Assembly: GCA_045628045.1 (NCBI GenBank)
Contig: JAZQOV010000011.1
Span: forward strand, 4,912-68,911
Length of the DNA: 64,000 nt
Reading direction: 5' to 3'
Source of the DNA: Bacilli bacterium
Lineage (GTDB): Bacteria > Bacillota_I > Bacilli_A > RFN20 > CAG-826
The position numbers and the translations under genes were made by a program. Shown here in pieces: positions 1 to 56,484 of the stretch. The stretch's first letter is position 1. Every line of letters begins with the position of its first letter. The notes under the pieces are model-generated. The model saw only the letters and a list, made by a program, of their open reading frames with translations. It did no database searches and had not been told where the DNA came from.

Positions 1-1440
1 ATTGTTTTAGGTGAAACAAAGGCATTTAAGATCGCAGTTAAAGTTGCAGCATGCGTGCTTGTCGCGCTTATGTTTGCAAGATCTTATTGTAACGATAGAT
101 TTGTTGTTATTATTAACAAAGGTTATTTTGAAGGACGTTTCTACGATAACGCTACTCCAGAAACTAATTTACTTGCTATCTTAAGATGGATTCAATTTGC
201 GTCCTTATGTATTATTATTCCTGCTGTTTTCTACGATAATCGCATATTTAGAAATATGGCGAAGTATTTCTGCGCTCCTTTTGGCGTAGTTAACTTATTC
301 TTCCTAAGTAAGTATTTAGATGATTTTAATATCCTTGCAGTTAGTGGAGTTGGCAAAAATAAAGGATTCTACGTCCAACCTTCTATAAGAACACCATTTG
401 TTATTATTGAATTTGTCTTATTTATTGTTGTTCCAGCACTTTTATTCTTCATGGAATCTGGAAAGAAATATTACTCAACCAAAAAAGAAATCATTCTTAC
501 TTGTATTTACGTGCCATGCGCTATTGCGTTATGCCCACCTGTATATTTATTTCAATCAGTTTTTGGATTTACAGAGAAATTTATGCTTTTAGGCACTTCT
601 AGTTGGTTCTTGTGGGTGCTTTCAATACTTGTACTTCTAGCAGGAATTTATTTCCTATTTAGATTCAAGGATAAAACAACAAGAGAATCTGTCATTCTAA
701 TGCTTGCGCTATACACGTTCATGCATTACAACACGATTTATATGATGGATTTAGTTGCATCACGCTTGCCACTTCAATTATGTAACCTTGGTTCATATTT
801 GATTTTAATTGCATGCATTTTCCATAATCAAAAATTCTTTAACTTCATCTTTATTGGAAACGTTTTTGGTGCGGTTGTTGCTACAATTATTGGCTACGAT
901 AGTAATGAATTACTATCATTCTGGTCAATGCACTACATCATTGAGCATACTTGGGTTATTAATTTACCACTTTTAATGGTTGCCTTTAGACTTTATGAAA
1001 TGCCTGACTTTAGAAAGAAAGCATTACTTCACTTCTTTATCGGATTCACAATCTTCTTTGTGGTCTGCTGGAGCGGTGGTTTTGTTCTCAACTGTTTCTT
1101 ATTTAAACAAGGCCATAAATTCTTTAATCACGTCAACTACTTCTACATGTATGACAATACGGTTGCGAATGTATTCCCGTTCTTAGGATTTACAAAAGCG
1201 GGTTCTATAACAATAAACAATTACACATTCTATCCGATTTATCAGGCTGGAATTTATATTGGATACATGGCTCTTTGTATCGCGTTTTATTTCTTAATTT
1301 GGTTTAGCCAAAGCGTTGCAGAGAGACATTTCAAACTTAGAAAATTAAGAATTAATTTCTTAAAAGAAAAAGGATTCTACAAGAAATTCCATCTTGAAGA
1401 GCCATTACTTGAATACAAAAAAGAAAGCGAGGAGAAGTAA
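1..1440 (+). CDS. Polytopic integral membrane protein (at least 10 predicted TM helices). The 5' end is probably outside the window. The first in-window start is GTG at 55, but the frame is open back to nt 1 and the upstream residues complete a TM helix.
   Basis: Long ORF 55..1440 in the six-frame track. The same frame has no stop between nt 1 and 55. The product is strongly hydrophobic and repetitive. There is no RBS upstream of 55. Confidence 0.55.
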   Translation: MVLGETKAFKIAVKVAACVLVALMFARSYCNDRFVVIINKGYFEGRFYDNATPETNLLAILRWIQFASLCIIIPAVFYDNRIFRNMAKYFCAPFGVVNLFFLSKYLDDFNILAVSGVGKNKGFYVQPSIRTPFVIIEFVLFIVVPALLFFMESGKKYYSTKKEIILTCIYVPCAIALCPPVYLFQSVFGFTEKFMLLGTSSWFLWVLSILVLLAGIYFLFRFKDKTTRESVILMLALYTFMHYNTIYMMDLVASRLPLQLCNLGSYLILIACIFHNQKFFNFIFIGNVFGAVVATIIGYDSNELLSFWSMHYIIEHTWVINLPLLMVAFRLYEMPDFRKKALLHFFIGFTIFFVVCWSGGFVLNCFLFKQGHKFFNHVNYFYMYDNTVANVFPFLGFTKAGSITINNYTFYPIYQAGIYIGYMALCIAFYFLIWFSQSVAERHFKLRKLRINFLKEKGFYKKFHLEEPLLEYKKESEEK

Positions 1441-17468: not shown

Positions 17469-17474
17469 ATTTTT

Positions 17475-17625
17475 ACCATAAAGAGTACGGCGAGGGACAA
17501 GCCCTATGACCCGTCAGCAACCTGCGTATAGCAAGGTGCTAAAGCTTGACTGATGGTTGTTTTTATTTTATAAGCCGTCAGTATCGATGGCTTTTAATTT
17601 CTTTGTGGTAGATAAGGAGGCTTAT
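17475..17625 (+). promoter_or_regulatory. About 150-nt structured 5' leader (attenuator/riboswitch-like) ending in an intrinsic terminator just before the RBS
   Basis: Nested stem ACGG-cg-AGGG-acaag-CCCU-auga-CCGU. CAACC...GGUUG + UUUUUAUUUU. Terminator hairpin GCCGUC-aguauc-GAUGGC + UUUU (17569-17596). RBS AAGGAGG at 17614-17620. Confidence 0.35.
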
Positions 17626-49496: not shown

Positions 49497-49868
49497 CTAG
49501 ATCTTCTTAAAATGTTTCTTAGTCTTCTGTGCGTCTAATAATTCTTTTTCCAATTCTTCTTTCTTTGGGAGATGAGTTATATATTTAGTCACAAAGATTT
49601 GGTTCGTAATATTTCCTAGTGCATATTCTACCTGTATGTGATCATAGTCAGTACACATGACAATACCAACAGGGTCATTGTCGCTCGATTTATTAACGTT
49701 TTCCTTAAAATAATTTAGGTAAGTGTTAATTTGGCCCATTACATCTTTTTTAAATGGAGTGGCTTTTAGCTCAATGAGCACATAACATTTAAGATTTTCA
49801 TTATAGAACACTAAATCGACAAAATATTTCTTGTTATCAATTAAAAATTGATACTGATTATCATTGAA
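49497..49868 (-). pseudogene. C-terminal fragment of a YhcG/DUF1016-family PD-(D/E)xK nuclease gene split by the IS element
   Basis: The frame is open from 49868. FNDNQYQFLIDNKKYFVDLVFYNENLKCYVLIELK... aligns with the YhcG core (…FIDLLFYHRRLRCLVLIDLK…). Confidence 0.65.
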
Positions 49869-50010
49869 CTACCCCCACTTAAACATTCTATGTTTAGAAG
49901 ATGGGGGATTCCTACTCAAGAATCCTCGAGGATTCAGTGTCGATAGGCTAACCCCGTAGTTCCTACGGTTTGGTGGACTACCACTATTGTTTTTGAAGTA
50001 CTAATCTAAT
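49869..50010 (-). ncRNA. Predicted omegaRNA (reRNA) scaffold of the TnpB element (3' end of tnpB plus right end)
   Basis: Dense hairpins on the minus strand: CCCCCAUCU...AGUGGGGG, GAAUCCUCGAGGAUUC palindrome, CCGUAGGAACUACGG. Position is as expected for IS605-family omegaRNA. Confidence 0.4.
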
Positions 50011-51132
50011 TCCTTCTTTTTTGATATTAATTGCTGCATTTATATCTCTATCATGCTTTCTACCACAGATAGGACAAATCCAATCTCTATCATTTAATTC
50101 AAGACTTTTGTTGATGTAACCACAATCACTGCAAGTTTTACTAGACGGAAAGTACCTATCTACTTTTATTAATTCCTTACCTAACCATCTTAATTTGTAA
50201 TCTAGAAAATTGACAAAAGTTCCATATGCTCGATCAGATAGATTTCTGCCCAACTTCATTTTTGTATCTTTTGATTGCATTGATTTCAAATCTAAATTTT
50301 CTACAAAAACATAATCGTATTTATTTGCAATTTTTCTGGATTCTTTATGCAAAAAATCTTTCCTAGAATTTGAAATATGAAGTTGAAGTTTTCTGACTTT
50401 TTGCCAGGATTTAATGGAGTTTTTGCTACCTTTTTGGCATTTTGATGCTCTTCTGGTTAATTTTGCAAGTTTCTCCATTTCGTTTTGAAGATACTTTGGC
50501 ATATCTGCGTGATTGCCATCGCTATCGACATAAAGATGTGACAAAGAAAAATCTAATCCTATTGAGTTGTTGATATCAAGTTTTTCAAGCTTGTCGAATA
50601 ACTCGACGTTTGGATTATCTTCTTCACCAGTCAATGTCACAAAATACATGTTTGCAACTCTAGAGATGGTGACTGTGGTAAAAGAGAATGATTCAGGCAT
50701 CAAACGAGATACTACAACTTTAACTCTGCCTAATTTAGGAATTTGGATTTCGTTACCATCAAGGCGGAGGTTATTGTTGATTTTCATAGTTGTGTAGCTA
50801 TGATCATTTCTTTTGGATTTAAATTTTGGAAAAGAACCTCTATGTTCAAAGAAATTAATATACGCAGCATGTAAATGAATAATGGCTTGTTGCAAAGCAA
50901 CACTATCAACTTCTTTTAAGTATTCATACCCTTCTTTGTAATCAGGAAGTATTTTGACTAAATCAAATTTTCTCAATTTAAAAGAAGGATCTTCCGCGTG
51001 CTTTTCGACACACATTTCAAGAAAATCATTATAGACTTGGCGAACGCATCCTAAAGTTTTCTCAATTTGTTGTTTTTGAGAAGAATTAGGATAGATTCGA
51101 AATTTATAAGCTTTCTTTATTTTCTTTTCCAT
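49984..51132 (-). CDS. tnpB: TnpB (IS605 OrfB family RNA-guided nuclease)
   Basis: N-terminus KAYKFRIYPNSSQKQQIEKTLGCVRQVYNDFL. RuvC-I IGLDFSLSHLYVDSDGN. RuvC-II YVFVENLDLKSM. Zn-finger CSDCGYINKSLELNDRDWICPICGRKHDRDINAAINI. Confidence 0.9.
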   Translation of the reverse strand: MEKKIKKAYKFRIYPNSSQKQQIEKTLGCVRQVYNDFLEMCVEKHAEDPSFKLRKFDLVKILPDYKEGYEYLKEVDSVALQQAIIHLHAAYINFFEHRGSFPKFKSKRNDHSYTTMKINNNLRLDGNEIQIPKLGRVKVVVSRLMPESFSFTTVTISRVANMYFVTLTGEEDNPNVELFDKLEKLDINNSIGLDFSLSHLYVDSDGNHADMPKYLQNEMEKLAKLTRRASKCQKGSKNSIKSWQKVRKLQLHISNSRKDFLHKESRKIANKYDYVFVENLDLKSMQSKDTKMKLGRNLSDRAYGTFVNFLDYKLRWLGKELIKVDRYFPSSKTCSDCGYINKSLELNDRDWICPICGRKHDRDINAAINIKKEGIRLVLQKQ

Positions 51133-51239
51133 ACTTATATTATACTATCATTTCTTAAGAAATGATAGTGTTATTTCATTTTTTGCTTGCAATTCATCCC
51201 GCCGCTTTACGAGCTTCAAGCGTGGGTCTTCTTGCTAAA

Positions 51240-51887
51240 TTAGATAAATCTAAAACCTGAGCCTAGTTCTAAAAGGAATTCTTTCATGTGCGTTATAATA
51301 CCTTTTTCAATTTCTTTTTCCCTAAGGTTAAAACCTTTTTTGAAGAAATTAATTACAATCGGATCTACCATTACATCTTTTGGTTCAACAATCTGATTCC
51401 CAAGAGTGGATAATTGATTCTTTTTTGCCTCTATATTTTCTTTTGAGCCCAGTAAGATTCTTTGATAGTATCCCGATTGTATTTGTCTTTTTAAATCCCT
51501 GACAGACCATCTTTGTTTTGCACACTCTATTTCATAGAATTTTCTTTCTTCATCATTTTTTACATTTAGAAGACAAAAGTAATGCCCCCATGATAAAGTG
51601 GGAAACAGTGTTTCCCAATTTTTATATATAATATAAAAATTTAACATTGCTTTAATGTTTCTTCTTGAATACCCAGAGCCGAATTCTTTGGTTAGCTCAT
51701 TAGAAATTGAACTAATCGTGCGCTTTTTATAATCGCTTTTTCCTTTATTGGAGTCGATGTCTTTTTGAATTTGTTCCCCTATATACATATAAAGCTTAAG
51801 TAATTCAGTATTAACGTTATATATGATTTTTGCCTTCGTTGTTTCTATTGCATTTTTTAAATTTATTACTAGTTTATTTTCTTTCAT
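51240..51887 (-). pseudogene. N-terminal fragment of the YhcG/DUF1016-family nuclease gene (ends ...LGSGFRFI* at the IS junction)
   Basis: DUF1016 N-domain pattern ...TLSWGHYFCLLNVKNDEERKFYEIECAKQRWSVRDLKRQI... RBS GGAGGAGG. Confidence 0.65.
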
Positions 51888-52121: not shown

Positions 52122-53297
52122 ATGTATGACATTAATATAAAAGTTTGCGAAAATACTAAAGTTTTTATTTTTAATGGTCCTATCGACTCTAACGTTACAG
52201 ACGAAATTAAAAATTTCGTTGAATCGAATTCTTCTGGCTCTGATAGCGTTATTTTTGATATGGAAAAAGTTCCATACATGTCTAGTGCAGGCCTTAGAGT
52301 AGTGCTTAAGACTGCTAAATCAGTAAAAGAATTTGAAGTTATCAATGCTTCTGTAGAGTTATATAACATTTTCGACATGGTTGGGTTTACCCAAATGATC
52401 AAAATTAAGAAAGCCATGAGAGAAATTTCTATCGAAGGAAAAGAACTTATTGGAGAAGGTTATATGGGTAAAGTCTATAGACTTGATCCAGATACAATCA
52501 TCAAAGTATTTAAAAGAACCTCTGATACTTCTGATATCGAAAGAGAAATTTCTTTGGCAAAGAAAGCATTCATTCTTGGAGTTCCTACCGCAATACCTTT
52601 TGACATAGTCAAAGTTAAAGAAGGTGGCTACGGTTCTGTATTTGAACTTCTTAAATCATCTTCATTTAATAAATTATTTATTAATCATCCTGAGAAGGAA
52701 GATGAATACATTAAGATGTACGTGAACATCATTAAGACAATTACTTCTATTGAGGCTAAAAACCCTAGTGAGTTCCCTCGTAAGATAAATGATGCGTTAA
52801 CTTGGGTAAATGGTCTTAAGGAAGCAAAAGCCTATGATGAAGCTACACTTGCTAAACTTGAAAAATTAGTTAACACAATTCCTGAGAGTTCGCACTTAAT
52901 TCATGGTGATTGCCACATCAAAAATATTATGATGCAAGGTGATGAACCATTCCTTATTGATATGGACACTTTGGGTGTTGGGCACACCATATTTGAGTTA
53001 ACTGCAATATTCTTAACTTATATCGGATATCCTGATAAATTCCCAGGAAATGTCCAGGAATTCCTAGGTATTTCCGATGAAACCGCTAAGAAATTATTCT
53101 ATTCAACAATTGATTCTTTATACGCAGATAAATCAAAAGAAGAAAGAAACACAATTGTTGAGAAATGTGCTTTGTTTGGTTATATGTGGTTAACATACAA
53201 GACATTATTATTTGAACCAGAAAATAAAGTAAGACTTGATAACGCAAAAGAGAAAGTTATGAGTCTTATTGATAAATACGACACACTTAATTTTTAA
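52122..53297 (+). CDS. STAS domain fused to a protein-kinase-like / aminoglycoside-phosphotransferase-like domain
   Basis: N-terminal STAS (MSSAGLRVVLKTAKSV...IFDMVGF). Gly-rich loop GEGYMGKVYR. Lys IIKVFK. Catalytic HGDCHIKNIMM. IDMDTLG. Confidence 0.65.
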   Translation: MYDINIKVCENTKVFIFNGPIDSNVTDEIKNFVESNSSGSDSVIFDMEKVPYMSSAGLRVVLKTAKSVKEFEVINASVELYNIFDMVGFTQMIKIKKAMREISIEGKELIGEGYMGKVYRLDPDTIIKVFKRTSDTSDIEREISLAKKAFILGVPTAIPFDIVKVKEGGYGSVFELLKSSSFNKLFINHPEKEDEYIKMYVNIIKTITSIEAKNPSEFPRKINDALTWVNGLKEAKAYDEATLAKLEKLVNTIPESSHLIHGDCHIKNIMMQGDEPFLIDMDTLGVGHTIFELTAIFLTYIGYPDKFPGNVQEFLGISDETAKKLFYSTIDSLYADKSKEERNTIVEKCALFGYMWLTYKTLLFEPENKVRLDNAKEKVMSLIDKYDTLNF

Positions 53298-53315
53298 TGA
53301 AAGAAGGACACGAAA

Positions 53316-53612
53316 ATGGAAATAAACAAACTTGTAGAGAAAGACACTCTCACACTTGCTATTGAAGGAAGACTTGATACTTTAACATCTCCAACCCTTC
53401 AAGAAACAATTAATTCATCACTTGAAGGCATTGTTCATTTAGTAATTGATCTAAAGAAAGTTGTCTATATTTCGAGTGCCGGATTAAGAGTAATTTTAAG
53501 TGCACAAAAATTAATGAATACGAAAGGTGATATGGTTGTAAAAAATTGTTCAGCTGAAGTCCTTGAAGTTTTTGAAATGACAGGATTTACTGAGATTTTA
53601 ACGATAAAATAA
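53316..53612 (+). CDS. STAS-domain anti-sigma-factor antagonist (SpoIIAA/RsbV-like)
   Basis: 98 aa. ISSAGLRVILSAQKLM...VFEMTGF. RBS GAAGGA. Confidence 0.8.
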   Translation: MEINKLVEKDTLTLAIEGRLDTLTSPTLQETINSSLEGIVHLVIDLKKVVYISSAGLRVILSAQKLMNTKGDMVVKNCSAEVLEVFEMTGFTEILTIK

Positions 53613-53613
53613 T

Positions 53614-56484
53614 ATGGAATTCCTGGATATTTTTAAATTTATAATAGCTGCAATCATTCCAATTCTTTTAAGCGTTGGCTGTATTTATCTTGAGAAAACA
53701 AGAAGATTTTCTAAGTTAAACAAATACGTTAAAGCTTTAATATTTGGAGTTATTTTTGGCATCAGTTCAATTAGTGGAACTTTACTTGGTTTAAAACTAC
53801 CAAATGGCGCAATCATCAACGTGCGTGATGCCTCTCCTATTATATGTGGTCTTCTTTTTGGTGGACCATCAGGAATTTTGGCTGGCTTAATTGGCGGCGG
53901 CTTTAGAGCACTTACTCCTCTTTGGGAACCATCGACAGCTTACACAGTTGTTGCATGTTCTATTTCAACCGCAATGGCTGGTGTATTTACTGTGTTTGTT
54001 AGACATTTCATCTTTGATGATAAAAAAGGTACTTGGTACTATGGATTCTTCCTTGGCGTATTAGTTGAAGACTTCCATATGATGATGTCTGTGCTTACAC
54101 ACACAGAAGATATTGTTAAGGTTTATAACTCAGTTATAAAAGTATGTACAGTTCCAATGGTATTAGCAAATTCATTAGCGGTAATGATTGCAATTATTAT
54201 TGTTAATTTAATAAATCACGAGAAAATATTTGAAAAAGAAGTCAGAACTCATATTTCTACAAAGGTTCAGGTTTCTTTGATTCTTTCTCTTGTTGTTTCT
54301 TATGTTGCAACTGCGTTATTTACGAATATGTCTGTTAATAAAGTTGTTCAAACAAATATTAAAGGTCAATGTGAAAACGCTATAAGCGATGTTATTAATA
54401 ATGTTGATGACACAATCAACAATGTTATGAGTGACAAACTTGATGAAGTCGCAATAAAACTTCTTGATGAAGTAAAACCATTAGAAAAAGATAGGCTTTT
54501 ACGTAAAGAAGCATTAGTAAGTATTCTTAATGATTTCTCTGGTGAGATTTCTGAAATCAATATTGTTGGCACTGATGGTTTTGTTCATTATTCCACAGAT
54601 CAATACGATTTTATGGAAGACGGAAGTGGACCATTTAACATGGAAATTGGTGACCAATCAAGAGAATTTAATGTCTTACTTAAAGAAGGCGAAACAAACT
54701 ATTTTATCCAGGAATTCCGCGAGATTTCTGCGTATGATGGCGGAAAATCAATGAAATATGCTGGCTATAGATTTGATGCTGAAGACATTGAATCAGACTT
54801 CTGTTATTTCCAAATTGGTTTAGATGCTGCAAGGTATCACGAACTACTTCAAGACTATGTTGATGAATGTGCTAAATTTAGACACATTGGTGAAGAAGGA
54901 TTCGTTGTAGTTAGCGATGAAAATGGTGCAATTGTTTCAACAATCGTTGATTGTCCATTTACTGAAACAATTGATGTAAATAAGTTCCTAAACGATGGTT
55001 ACGATAAATATTACACTTACTCTAAATTTGTTGAAGGTTACTACATTGTTGCTTTTGCAGGCGCTGAAGAAAGTGATTTAGCATCCGTAATTTCATTCAC
55101 TGCAATTTCTCTTGCTGAAGTTTTTGTTTATTTGCTTTTATATTGCGTTTTATATATAGCAGTTAAACGTAGAATCGTTGATAAAATTAAAACTATAGGC
55201 TTAAGCCTAAATGAAATTTCTTCAGGAAACTTAGATGTTGTTGTTAATCAAAGAGACAGTTATGAATTTGATTCATTAAGTAACGACATTAATAAAACTG
55301 TTGGAACTCTTAAAGAGTTCATTGCGAAAGAAGCTAATAAGAATGCTGAAGAGTTAGCATTTGCTAAAAACATTCAATATTCTGTTCTTCCAACCGCTTT
55401 CCCAATGAATGATAGATTTGAAATTTATGCTTCTATGTCAACCGCCAAGACTGTTGGTGGTGACTTCTATGATTTCTATTTTATAGATAGAGAGCATGTA
55501 TTAATTGAAATCGCTGATGTTAGTGGAAAAGGTATTCCTGCCGCTATGTTCATGATGAGAGCAAAATCTGTTCTTAAATCACTTATAGAATCAGGTATTG
55601 GAATTGAAAATGCCTTTATTGAAGCAAATAGAAAACTTTGTCAAGGTAATGATACTCAAACATTTATTACGGTTTGGGGTGGAATTATCGATTTAACTAC
55701 AGGACATGTTGACTTTGTCAACGCTGGTCATAATCCTCCAATTATTTGTAGAGATGGCAAATTTGAGTACTTACATAGTAAACCAGGCTTTGTTTTAGCA
55801 GGTTTAGAAGGATTTAAATACGTTAAGCAAAGCTTTGACATTAAGCCAGGTGATATGATTTATCTTTATACTGATGGTGTTACTGAAGCTAATAACGAAA
55901 AACATGAACTTTATGGAGAAGAAAGACTTCTTAAAGCAATTGGAGATAAAACATATACTTCTAAATCTATTTGTGAAACTGTCTCAAAGAGTTTGAAGAA
56001 GTTTGTGAATGATGCAGAACAATCTGATGATATTACAATGCTCGCATTTAAATTCTATGATGTTGAGCTCGCTAATATTAAAGTTGTGGATGCAGACTTA
56101 AAGAATTTACCAGAAATCATAGATTATATCGATGATTTGCTTGATAAAAATAACGCCACATTATCTGCAAAATCACAAATCGATGTAGCAGTGGATGAGA
56201 TATTCTCAAATATCGCATTCTACGCTTATCCAGAAGGCCAAGTTGGTAAGGTCAAAGTTTCAGTCATTATGTCTAAAGACAATGAAGAAATGACCATTAT
56301 CTTTGAAGATAAAGGAAAAACATATAACCCACTTGAGAAAGAAGATCCAGATACTTCACTATCTCTAGAAGAGAAGTCTATTGGTGGACTAGGTATATTT
56401 ATTGTTAAAAAGACAATGGATTCATTAGAATACGATAACGTTAATGGTCATAACGTATTAACCCTCAGAAAGAAGATTCATTAG
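53614..56484 (+). CDS. Membrane sensor: multi-TM + extracytoplasmic domain + HAMP + SpoIIE/PP2C phosphatase + C-terminal RsbW-like HATPase_c (anti-sigma kinase) domain
   Basis: N-terminal 5-6 TM helices. HAMP-like VDKIKTIGLSLNEISSGNLDVVV. PP2C GGDFYDFYFID...IADVSGKGIPAAMFMM...DGVTEA...DDIT. HATPase VDEIFSNIAFYAY...SIGGLGIFIVKKTMDSLEY. Confidence 0.75.
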   Translation: MEFLDIFKFIIAAIIPILLSVGCIYLEKTRRFSKLNKYVKALIFGVIFGISSISGTLLGLKLPNGAIINVRDASPIICGLLFGGPSGILAGLIGGGFRALTPLWEPSTAYTVVACSISTAMAGVFTVFVRHFIFDDKKGTWYYGFFLGVLVEDFHMMMSVLTHTEDIVKVYNSVIKVCTVPMVLANSLAVMIAIIIVNLINHEKIFEKEVRTHISTKVQVSLILSLVVSYVATALFTNMSVNKVVQTNIKGQCENAISDVINNVDDTINNVMSDKLDEVAIKLLDEVKPLEKDRLLRKEALVSILNDFSGEISEINIVGTDGFVHYSTDQYDFMEDGSGPFNMEIGDQSREFNVLLKEGETNYFIQEFREISAYDGGKSMKYAGYRFDAEDIESDFCYFQIGLDAARYHELLQDYVDECAKFRHIGEEGFVVVSDENGAIVSTIVDCPFTETIDVNKFLNDGYDKYYTYSKFVEGYYIVAFAGAEESDLASVISFTAISLAEVFVYLLLYCVLYIAVKRRIVDKIKTIGLSLNEISSGNLDVVVNQRDSYEFDSLSNDINKTVGTLKEFIAKEANKNAEELAFAKNIQYSVLPTAFPMNDRFEIYASMSTAKTVGGDFYDFYFIDREHVLIEIADVSGKGIPAAMFMMRAKSVLKSLIESGIGIENAFIEANRKLCQGNDTQTFITVWGGIIDLTTGHVDFVNAGHNPPIICRDGKFEYLHSKPGFVLAGLEGFKYVKQSFDIKPGDMIYLYTDGVTEANNEKHELYGEERLLKAIGDKTYTSKSICETVSKSLKKFVNDAEQSDDITMLAFKFYDVELANIKVVDADLKNLPEIIDYIDDLLDKNNATLSAKSQIDVAVDEIFSNIAFYAYPEGQVGKVKVSVIMSKDNEEMTIIFEDKGKTYNPLEKEDPDTSLSLEEKSIGGLGIFIVKKTMDSLEYDNVNGHNVLTLRKKIH

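Follow-up and report, generated by a model that had tools for sequence, protein, structure and literature searches.

The closest described systems to the element considered here are ISDra2 of Deinococcus radiodurans, IS608 of Helicobacter pylori and the TnpA-less ISGst elements of Geobacillus stearothermophilus (IS1341 type), and a mechanism of the kind proposed below has been established for ISDra2 and for the Geobacillus elements (PMC8612924, PMC10055086, PMC10097598). The guide RNA of ISDra2, its omegaRNA, consists of a 116-nucleotide (nt) scaffold with four stems, a pseudoknot between positions -5..-3 and -105..-103, adenines at -2 and -1, and a guide of 16 nt (PMC10097598). A tnpB gene unaccompanied by tnpA is the commonest state, found in roughly three quarters of tnpB genes (PMC10055086), and the 3' overlapping RNA of tnpB-only elements has also been described (PMC4615843). 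An element of this kind lies in a 64,000-nt stretch of Bacilli DNA of 33% G+C (the window, in whose numbering all coordinates are given), where it divides a YhcG/DUF1016 nuclease gene. It is very probably a non-autonomous, TnpB-only element of the IS200/IS605 family that inserted 3' of the sequence TTTAT in the YhcG gene, that is moved by TnpA acting in trans and that takes its guide from the flanking DNA.

On the minus strand between 51887 and 49497, three open reading frames (ORFs) follow one another: one of 215 amino acids (51887..51240), one of 382 amino acids (51132..49984) and a frame that runs from 49868 to a stop at 49497. These resolve into an element and the two parts of a gene on either side of it:

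51244..51887, minus strand: YhcG/DUF1016 gene, 5' part; codons 1-214 and the first two bases of codon 215
51244..51248, minus strand: TTTAT, transposon-adjacent motif (TAM), directly 5' of the left end; shared by all 12 copies
49864..51243, minus strand: whole element, IS200/IS605 family, TnpB-only (IS1341 type); 1,380 bp; homology to 11 other copies starts and stops here
51133..51243, minus strand: left end of the element, starting CTAATTTAGCAAGAAGA; 111 nt, conserved in all copies
49497..49863, minus strand: YhcG/DUF1016 gene, 3' part; matches Pfam YhcG_C positions 47-156 (2e-35) and holds the PD-(D/E)xK core

The ORF of the 5' fragment reads through into the element and ends at a TAA at 51242..51240. 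Its 215-residue product is identical to NCBI record P0126, and a cluster look-up indicates that the window TnpB and this N-terminal YhcG fragment are both on record in NCBI, on one contig. The 5' fragment matches Pfam DUF1016_N (7e-38) together with positions 2-46 of the YhcG_C profile, which is split across the two fragments between the adjacent positions 46 and 47; once the fragments are combined, both the DUF1016_N and YhcG_C domains, with the D...(D/E)xK core, are present. Joining 51244 to 49863 removes 1,380 bp (3 x 460) and yields a 1,011-nt in-frame ORF of 336 amino acids, which reads ...LELGSGFRFI|DNQYQFLIDNKKYFVDLVFY... at the junction (...GSGFRFI|DNQYQF), with AT|T, a codon for Ile, spanning the break. 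Intact orthologues (66-80% identity; 80% overall for P0121) align with the restored protein without gaps, through the junction, and four of them share the junction motif GSGFRFIDNQYQF exactly. The PD-(D/E)xK core of the restored protein reads D231 ... E246-L-K248, with D231 and K248 invariant among homologues.

The same conclusion is reached at the level of DNA. The intact gene for P0121 (locus L013, 77% nucleotide identity) matches the window from 51888 to 51244 and then from 49868 to 49515, with nothing between. No target site is duplicated: taking the element out recreates the empty site to the base. The restored frame, the orthologue alignment and the collinear L013 DNA confirm that the YhcG gene was intact before one clean insertion, and the absence of any frameshift or internal stop in the two fragments argues that the insertion was recent. 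An original prediction, made from the window alone, had already proposed that the fragments rejoin in frame across a TnpB element and that the nuclease had been intact beforehand, and the alignment to an intact orthologue has borne it out. Its junction, FRF|NDNQ, was one base off on each side: the Asn codon in that version borrows AA from the conserved terminal TTCAA of the element, and the correct junction is FRFI|DNQ, with the Ile found in the orthologues. In PADLOC, the restored protein has a match (1e-104) to the candidate-defence family PDC-S02, so that the insertion knocks out a candidate anti-phage nuclease.

The ends of the element were defined from its other copies. In a scan that took one genome per species, ten loci were found to encode TnpB proteins 91-94% identical to that of the window. 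The hosts are all uncultured Bacilli of horse faeces, Candidatus Fiminaster equi among them, and one horse-faeces genome bin holds at least four of the copies. Two further copies, L001 (TnpB 85% identical) and L014 (90%), came from metagenome data. The sister copies are 1,374-1,384 bp long, and homology begins and ends at the same bases in all copies compared. Every copy starts with CTAATTTAGCAAGAAGAC... (with small variants), directly preceded by TTTAT, and finishes with ...GGGGGTAGTTCAA (with single-base variants in a few), after which the sequence is unrelated; the base before TTTAT and everything further upstream differ between the 12 copies. All copies keep the final A of TTCAA and differ at the base that follows, which sets the right end at 49864; the restored frame together with the orthologue alignment places the break after TTTAT. 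The size of 1.38 kb given earlier fits the 1,380 bp found here (51243..49864). The additional copies that the original prediction proposed to look for exist at 11 unrelated sites in other genomes and metagenomes, and none further was found in the window. Of the 12 copies, that of the window alone interrupts an ORF; the eleven others lie outside ORFs.

Several details of the surroundings of the sister copies were recorded. At L006, L008 and L009, the TTTAT forms the T-tract tail of a GC-rich, terminator-like hairpin, and the right ends of L003, L004, L005, L007 and L008 are followed, after 2-20 nt, by the start codon of a gene in the same orientation. The sequence TTTAT is naturally frequent at terminators and pre-start sites in a genome of 33% G+C. 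Relatives of the TnpB in viral contigs were only distant (33-46% identical), the best match in a plasmid collection had 43% identity and was labelled 'RNA-guided endonuclease TnpB family protein', and the TnpBs of the sister copies carry the NCBI label 'transposase'.

The layout of adjacent motif, left hairpin about 17 nt in, and right hairpin followed by 8 nt is that of IS608 and ISDra2. A 5-nt T-rich motif stands at the left flank in both ISDra2 (TTGAT) and the window element (TTTAT). IS608, too, inserts on the 3' side of a short T-rich motif, makes no duplication and has bulged subterminal hairpins set back from its ends; it differs in having a tnpA gene and in its motif, TTAC. The right end of IS608 also finishes in TCAA. 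The TnpB of IS608 was inactive in the assay of PMC10055086. The adjacent motif of the window element had been expected beyond the right end, in a guide-side flank just beyond 49868; in fact TTTAT sits at the left-end flank (51248..51244), and the sequence beyond 49864, which begins at 49863, is the predicted guide or target. Only in the empty site does TTTAT abut the guide-matching sequence.

The only gene within the element encodes a TnpB protein:

49984..51132, minus strand: tnpB, 382 amino acids and stop; predicted RNA-guided endonuclease of the TnpB family

The ORF matches the Pfam families HTH_OrfB_IS605, OrfB_IS605 and Cas12f1-like_TNB, and scores 277 bits on NCBIfam guided_TnpB against a cut-off of 100. 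It scores 335 bits on IS200_TnpB and 156 bits on IS607_TnpB, for which the cut-off is 350. Residues 6-375 align with the ISDra2 TnpB structures 8H1J and 8BF8/8EXA (E about 1e-57), with roughly a third of the aligned positions identical, and the D-E-D triad and zinc finger are common to the two proteins. Across 24 aligned homologues (58-91% identity), the RuvC triad D194/E278/D363, which corresponds to the GxD, E and HDRD motifs of ISDra2, is invariant, as are the four cysteines of the CxxC..CxxC zinc finger (C334, C337, C353 and C356). The ratio of nonsynonymous to synonymous substitution rates (dN/dS) against seven sister copies is 0.05-0.14 at dS values of 0.4-0.7, which marks strong purifying selection. 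The earlier description of an intact TnpB with RuvC motifs and a zinc finger is therefore accurate, and the protein is apparently functional as a nuclease, to judge from its conserved residues. A sigma-70 promoter scan gave no convincing promoter for tnpB (17 sites against 11.5 expected).

Downstream of tnpB, the right end appears to specify a structured RNA. Its parts are as follows:

49864..49970, minus strand: omegaRNA-type scaffold, which is the right end; 107 nt, four helices and a pseudoknot
49968-49954, minus strand: helix H1
49947-49943 with 49915-49911, minus strand: helix H2
49935-49920, minus strand: helix H3
49872..49907, minus strand: helix H4, the right-end subterminal hairpin, CCCCCAuCUU...AAGUGGGGG, with one bulged base; 94.3% paired
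49962-49959 (GAAC) with 49869-49866 (GUUC), minus strand: pseudoknot between the loop of the first hairpin and the bases 3-6 before the end

Helix H4 is followed by 8 nt that finish in the conserved TTCAA. The 127 nt from 49990 to 49864, which start just upstream of the tnpB stop, fold with -39.2 kcal/mol (z = -2.45). The same core of 90-107 nt, AACCG...CTTGAGT...(G)TCAC, is kept in a second clade (about 35 loci) in which TnpB identity is no more than 53-60%, and the 107-nt core is conserved in 37 sequences. Pairing was counted over 33 distinct sequences in an N-padded alignment on a fixed hairpin template; a MAFFT alignment, in which the 3' hairpin was out of register between the clades, had been set aside. 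With the caveat that the alignment was built on that template, 96.8% of cells are paired, a share that falls to 31-57% if the 3' partners are shifted by 1-3 columns. Compensatory changes on both sides occur in 11 of the 29 scaffold pairs, including four pairs of helix H3; the covarying pairs include 6-14 (A-U in 21, U-A in 12), 7-13 (three pair types) and 26-58 (C-G in 23, U-A in 10). In the second clade the pseudoknot is GACU:GGUC; over the whole alignment, 23 sequences have C-G at pseudoknot pair 11-106 and 9 have A-U. An alternative helix proposed by RNAalifold, GGGG(16-19):CCCC(65-68), does pair, without any compensatory change, and competes with H1 and H4; it was rejected.

Helices H1 to H3 and the pseudoknot have no role in the binding of DNA by TnpA, which argues that RNA is what is conserved, and the comparisons support the view that the right end is a structured RNA of the omegaRNA type, as the original prediction had suggested. 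Helix H4 would be expected to serve in addition as a TnpA recognition hairpin in single-stranded DNA. The likeness to ISDra2 extends to a scaffold of about 110-116 nt that starts near the tnpB stop, to the four stems, and to a pseudoknot that uses the last bases before the guide. The end of the ISDra2 scaffold can be read as G-U-N-C-A-A (-6G, -5U, -3C, -2A, -1A; PMC10097598), compared with GUUCAA here. In the window element the loop of a short 5' hairpin supplies the partner strand of the pseudoknot, whereas in ISDra2 that strand falls within the longer stem-1 region.

The 111 nt between the left end and the ATG of tnpB leave no room for a protein-coding gene, and tblastn with the TnpA of a relative gave no match across the window, nor within 2.5 kb of the close copies. 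This makes the element non-autonomous, and its earlier description as a TnpA-less, non-autonomous RNA-guided nuclease cassette is a fair one, with the nuclease activity inferred; this is also the condition in which most tnpB genes are found (PMC10055086). ISDra2, in contrast, has its own tnpA. More distant relatives (L018/L017, L051 and L057) carry, directly upstream of tnpB, a 136-residue IS200-type Y1 TnpA in which the HVH and Y motifs are visible (NF033573, 3e-41). Their TnpB proteins are 43-60% (L018 and L051) and 37% (L057) identical to that of the window, and in all of them the TnpA stop overlaps the tnpB start, as in L018, where TnpA occupies 29..439 and the right end finishes in GTCAC rather than GTTCAA. 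These are autonomous cousins of the window element. Two copies of another relative, of 56-57% identity (L036 and L046), share a 233-kb metagenome contig (Ga0247609_10000021), where some 4 kb separates them; their left ends are near-identical and their right flanks different.

The element lacks terminal inverted repeats and has instead imperfect subterminal hairpins at both ends, each with one bulged base. The counterpart of H4 at the left end is:

51198..51226, minus strand: subterminal hairpin of the left end, imperfect, with 9 bp and one bulged base; set 17 nt in from the end

Among 11 distinct copies, 93.9% of its cells are paired (34-62% when slid) and two pairs are compensated; it is the expected TnpA recognition structure. 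Wherever its defining features could be checked, the element conforms to a standard TnpB-only member of the IS200/IS605 family. A close parallel in gene content is provided by the roughly 50 TnpA-less ISGst copies, in which tnpB alone stands between conserved ends, mobilisation in trans is presumed, the guide comes from the right flank and the donor joint is the predicted target (PMC10055086). The ISGst elements belong to another sequence family and another host, the window element being from uncultured low-GC Bacilli with relatives in the horse gut.

These comparisons suggest how the element would behave. A Y1 TnpA supplied in trans, and presumably encoded in the genome, would have inserted it by single-strand 'peel-and-paste' transposition immediately 3' of TTTAT in the coding strand of the YhcG gene, with which the element shares its orientation. 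The insertion parts the N-terminal domain from the D231...E246-x-K248 catalytic core, and the YhcG gene is thereby inactivated. A transcript through the right end, if expressed and processed as in the known systems, would consist of the scaffold and about 16 nt of the flanking gene acting as guide:

49848..49863, minus strand: predicted guide, TGATAATCAGTATCAA; the first 16 nt of the 3' gene fragment, the length being taken by analogy with ISDra2

In every copy, this segment is the first non-conserved sequence past the right end. The occupied site would be immune, because TTCAA, and not TTTAT, precedes the guide-matching sequence. Precise excision by TnpA would create a scarless joint reading ...AGATTTAT|TGATAATC..., in which TTTAT followed by TGATAATCAGTATCAA (49863..49848) forms the one perfect target for the complex of TnpB and omegaRNA. 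TnpB would be expected to cut this restored site in a TTTAT-dependent manner, and recombination with a sister copy or chromosome would then put the element back. No other match to the guide with fewer than three mismatches occurs in the window, the next-best having three.

Several observations weigh against the interpretation of a mobile TnpB-only element with a guide RNA and are best taken together. With TnpA found neither in the window nor beside the close copies, current mobility is unproven; searches of the 64-kb window by blastn and tblastn detected no second copy or solo right end, leaving a single copy there; and the left-end hairpin of the window copy, like that of L014, contains one A.G mismatch. 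Many of the double changes in the scaffold separate just two clades, which leaves few independent covariation events. The folding of the right end, proposed in the original prediction along with a comparison to covariance models, did reveal a structured region, and in the comparison no Rfam family reaches its gathering score on the right end. The missing TnpA, the single copy and the hairpin mismatch could together mean that the element is a dead relic, with TnpB or the ends non-functional, that merely marks an old insertion. Such a relic would hardly be expected to keep a full-length ORF with all catalytic and zinc-binding residues, a dN/dS as low as 0.05-0.14 while dS has reached 0.4-0.7, and ends and scaffold near-identical to those of copies at 11 other sites, at least four of them in one bin; and the undamaged state of the interrupted gene points to a recent insertion. 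The relic explanation is judged unlikely, although it retains some weight. It could be argued more radically that no insertion took place, and that the two YhcG-like ORFs arose as separate genes, or through an ancient split, and just happen to flank an unrelated TnpB gene. Each fragment is indeed a separate ORF as annotated, and the N-terminal one has its own 215-residue protein record. A single Pfam domain is nevertheless cut between consecutive profile positions, excision of precisely the sequence common to 12 copies restores both the frame and the junction motif of four intact orthologues, and the DNA of an intact orthologue is collinear across the break. None of the 120 listed homologues showed the YhcG halves as separate genes in other contexts, and independent genes with unrelated intervening sequence, the outcome that had been named as counting against the original prediction, were not seen in the relatives compared. 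The probability left to this explanation is next to negligible.

The remaining alternatives accept an inserted element and differ as to its kind or its role. An IS607-type element, with a serine recombinase in place of Y1 TnpA, might be suspected from the score of 156 bits on IS607_TnpB and from the association of some tnpB genes with IS607 (PMC10055086). The IS200_TnpB score is more than twice as high (335 bits), the relatives carry an IS200-type Y1 TnpA (NF033573, 3e-41) and not a serine TnpA, and the bulged subterminal hairpins, 5-nt adjacent motif and lack of target duplication all speak against it; this assignment is extremely improbable. Domestication of TnpB for a host function, for example as an RNA-guided regulator and not as a transposon passenger, would account for strong purifying selection on TnpB-only loci without TnpA and for the position of several sister copies just upstream of start codons, and domesticated derivatives of TnpB are known (PMC10705468). 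The known domesticated forms have lost RuvC residues that are intact here, the gene is always accompanied by complete transposon ends and a TAM at unrelated sites, and the guide differs from site to site, as expected of a mobile element, all of which makes domestication very improbable. A related and more speculative proposal is that the TnpB-only clade is kept for something beyond the guarding of donor sites, either because it switches or regulates neighbouring genes under RNA guidance or because it spreads by TnpB-driven homing alone. This proposal draws on the purifying selection on TnpB in the absence of TnpA near any of the 12 copies, and on the location of most copies on terminator T-tracts or 2-20 nt before starts, in gene orientation, where a guide would cover the start region of the downstream gene. 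It also draws on the guide of the window copy, which would lock a candidate anti-phage nuclease (PDC-S02) in its disrupted state. It is considered quite unlikely, and the TnpB-only element with TnpA in trans and a flank-derived guide is the interpretation retained here.

The analysis provides a base-exact anatomy (ends, TTTAT, scaffold with pseudoknot, and predicted guide) for an undescribed TnpB clade from uncultured gut Bacilli, sufficient for the design of a cleavage assay or for consideration of the compact, 382-residue protein as a genome-editing candidate. It further provides an example of a candidate defence nuclease knocked out in nature by an insertion sequence. The general understanding of such elements is unchanged, TnpB-only IS200/IS605 elements and their guide logic being well established.

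The region between the left end and tnpB contains one further conserved structure:

51144..51169, minus strand: 26-bp palindrome, CTATCATTTC-TTAA-GAAATGATAG, a perfect self-match that abuts TATAAT, 7 nt before the tnpB ATG

In the sister copies, the stem of this palindrome is kept and its loop varies, with one compensatory C/G change in L011. The clade with TnpB proteins of 53-60% identity has a different palindrome, TATCAAT-A-AATTGATA, which likewise abuts TATAAT. There is no obvious Shine-Dalgarno sequence before tnpB, and the palindrome could be an operator, a 5' hairpin, or the sign of a leaderless mRNA.

No family named as a TnpB omegaRNA appeared in the Rfam output. There was a weak full-length match to Ref70 ('Enterococcus sRNA 70') on the minus strand at 49974..49852, which scores 24 bits (E = 0.2) where the gathering score is 115. 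The Ref70 consensus shares with the right end of the window element an AAC-stem-GGGAC-stem-GG...AGCC start and a ...CCAC end. Eight related loci did not give the match again, and no mention of Ref70 was found in the literature searched. The resemblance is a hint that a TnpB guide-RNA scaffold may be what Ref70 represents, a suggestion treated here as unproven.

Elsewhere in the window, the ORF translations suggest a partner-switching-type gene cluster on the plus strand at 52122..56484, adjoining the interrupted gene, with putative products that comprise a STAS-plus-kinase-like protein (391 amino acids), a small STAS protein (98 amino acids) and a large membrane protein (956 amino acids) whose C-terminus is PP2C/SpoIIE-type and HATPase-like. 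By their translations, the neighbours of the YhcG gene are a PTS-EIIC-like membrane protein, STAS proteins and a putative SpoIIE-type phosphatase, surroundings that do not resemble a defence island. The only Rfam family above threshold in the window is a SAM riboswitch (S-box) on the plus strand at 17473..17559, which scores 51.8 bits against a gathering score of 44.4.

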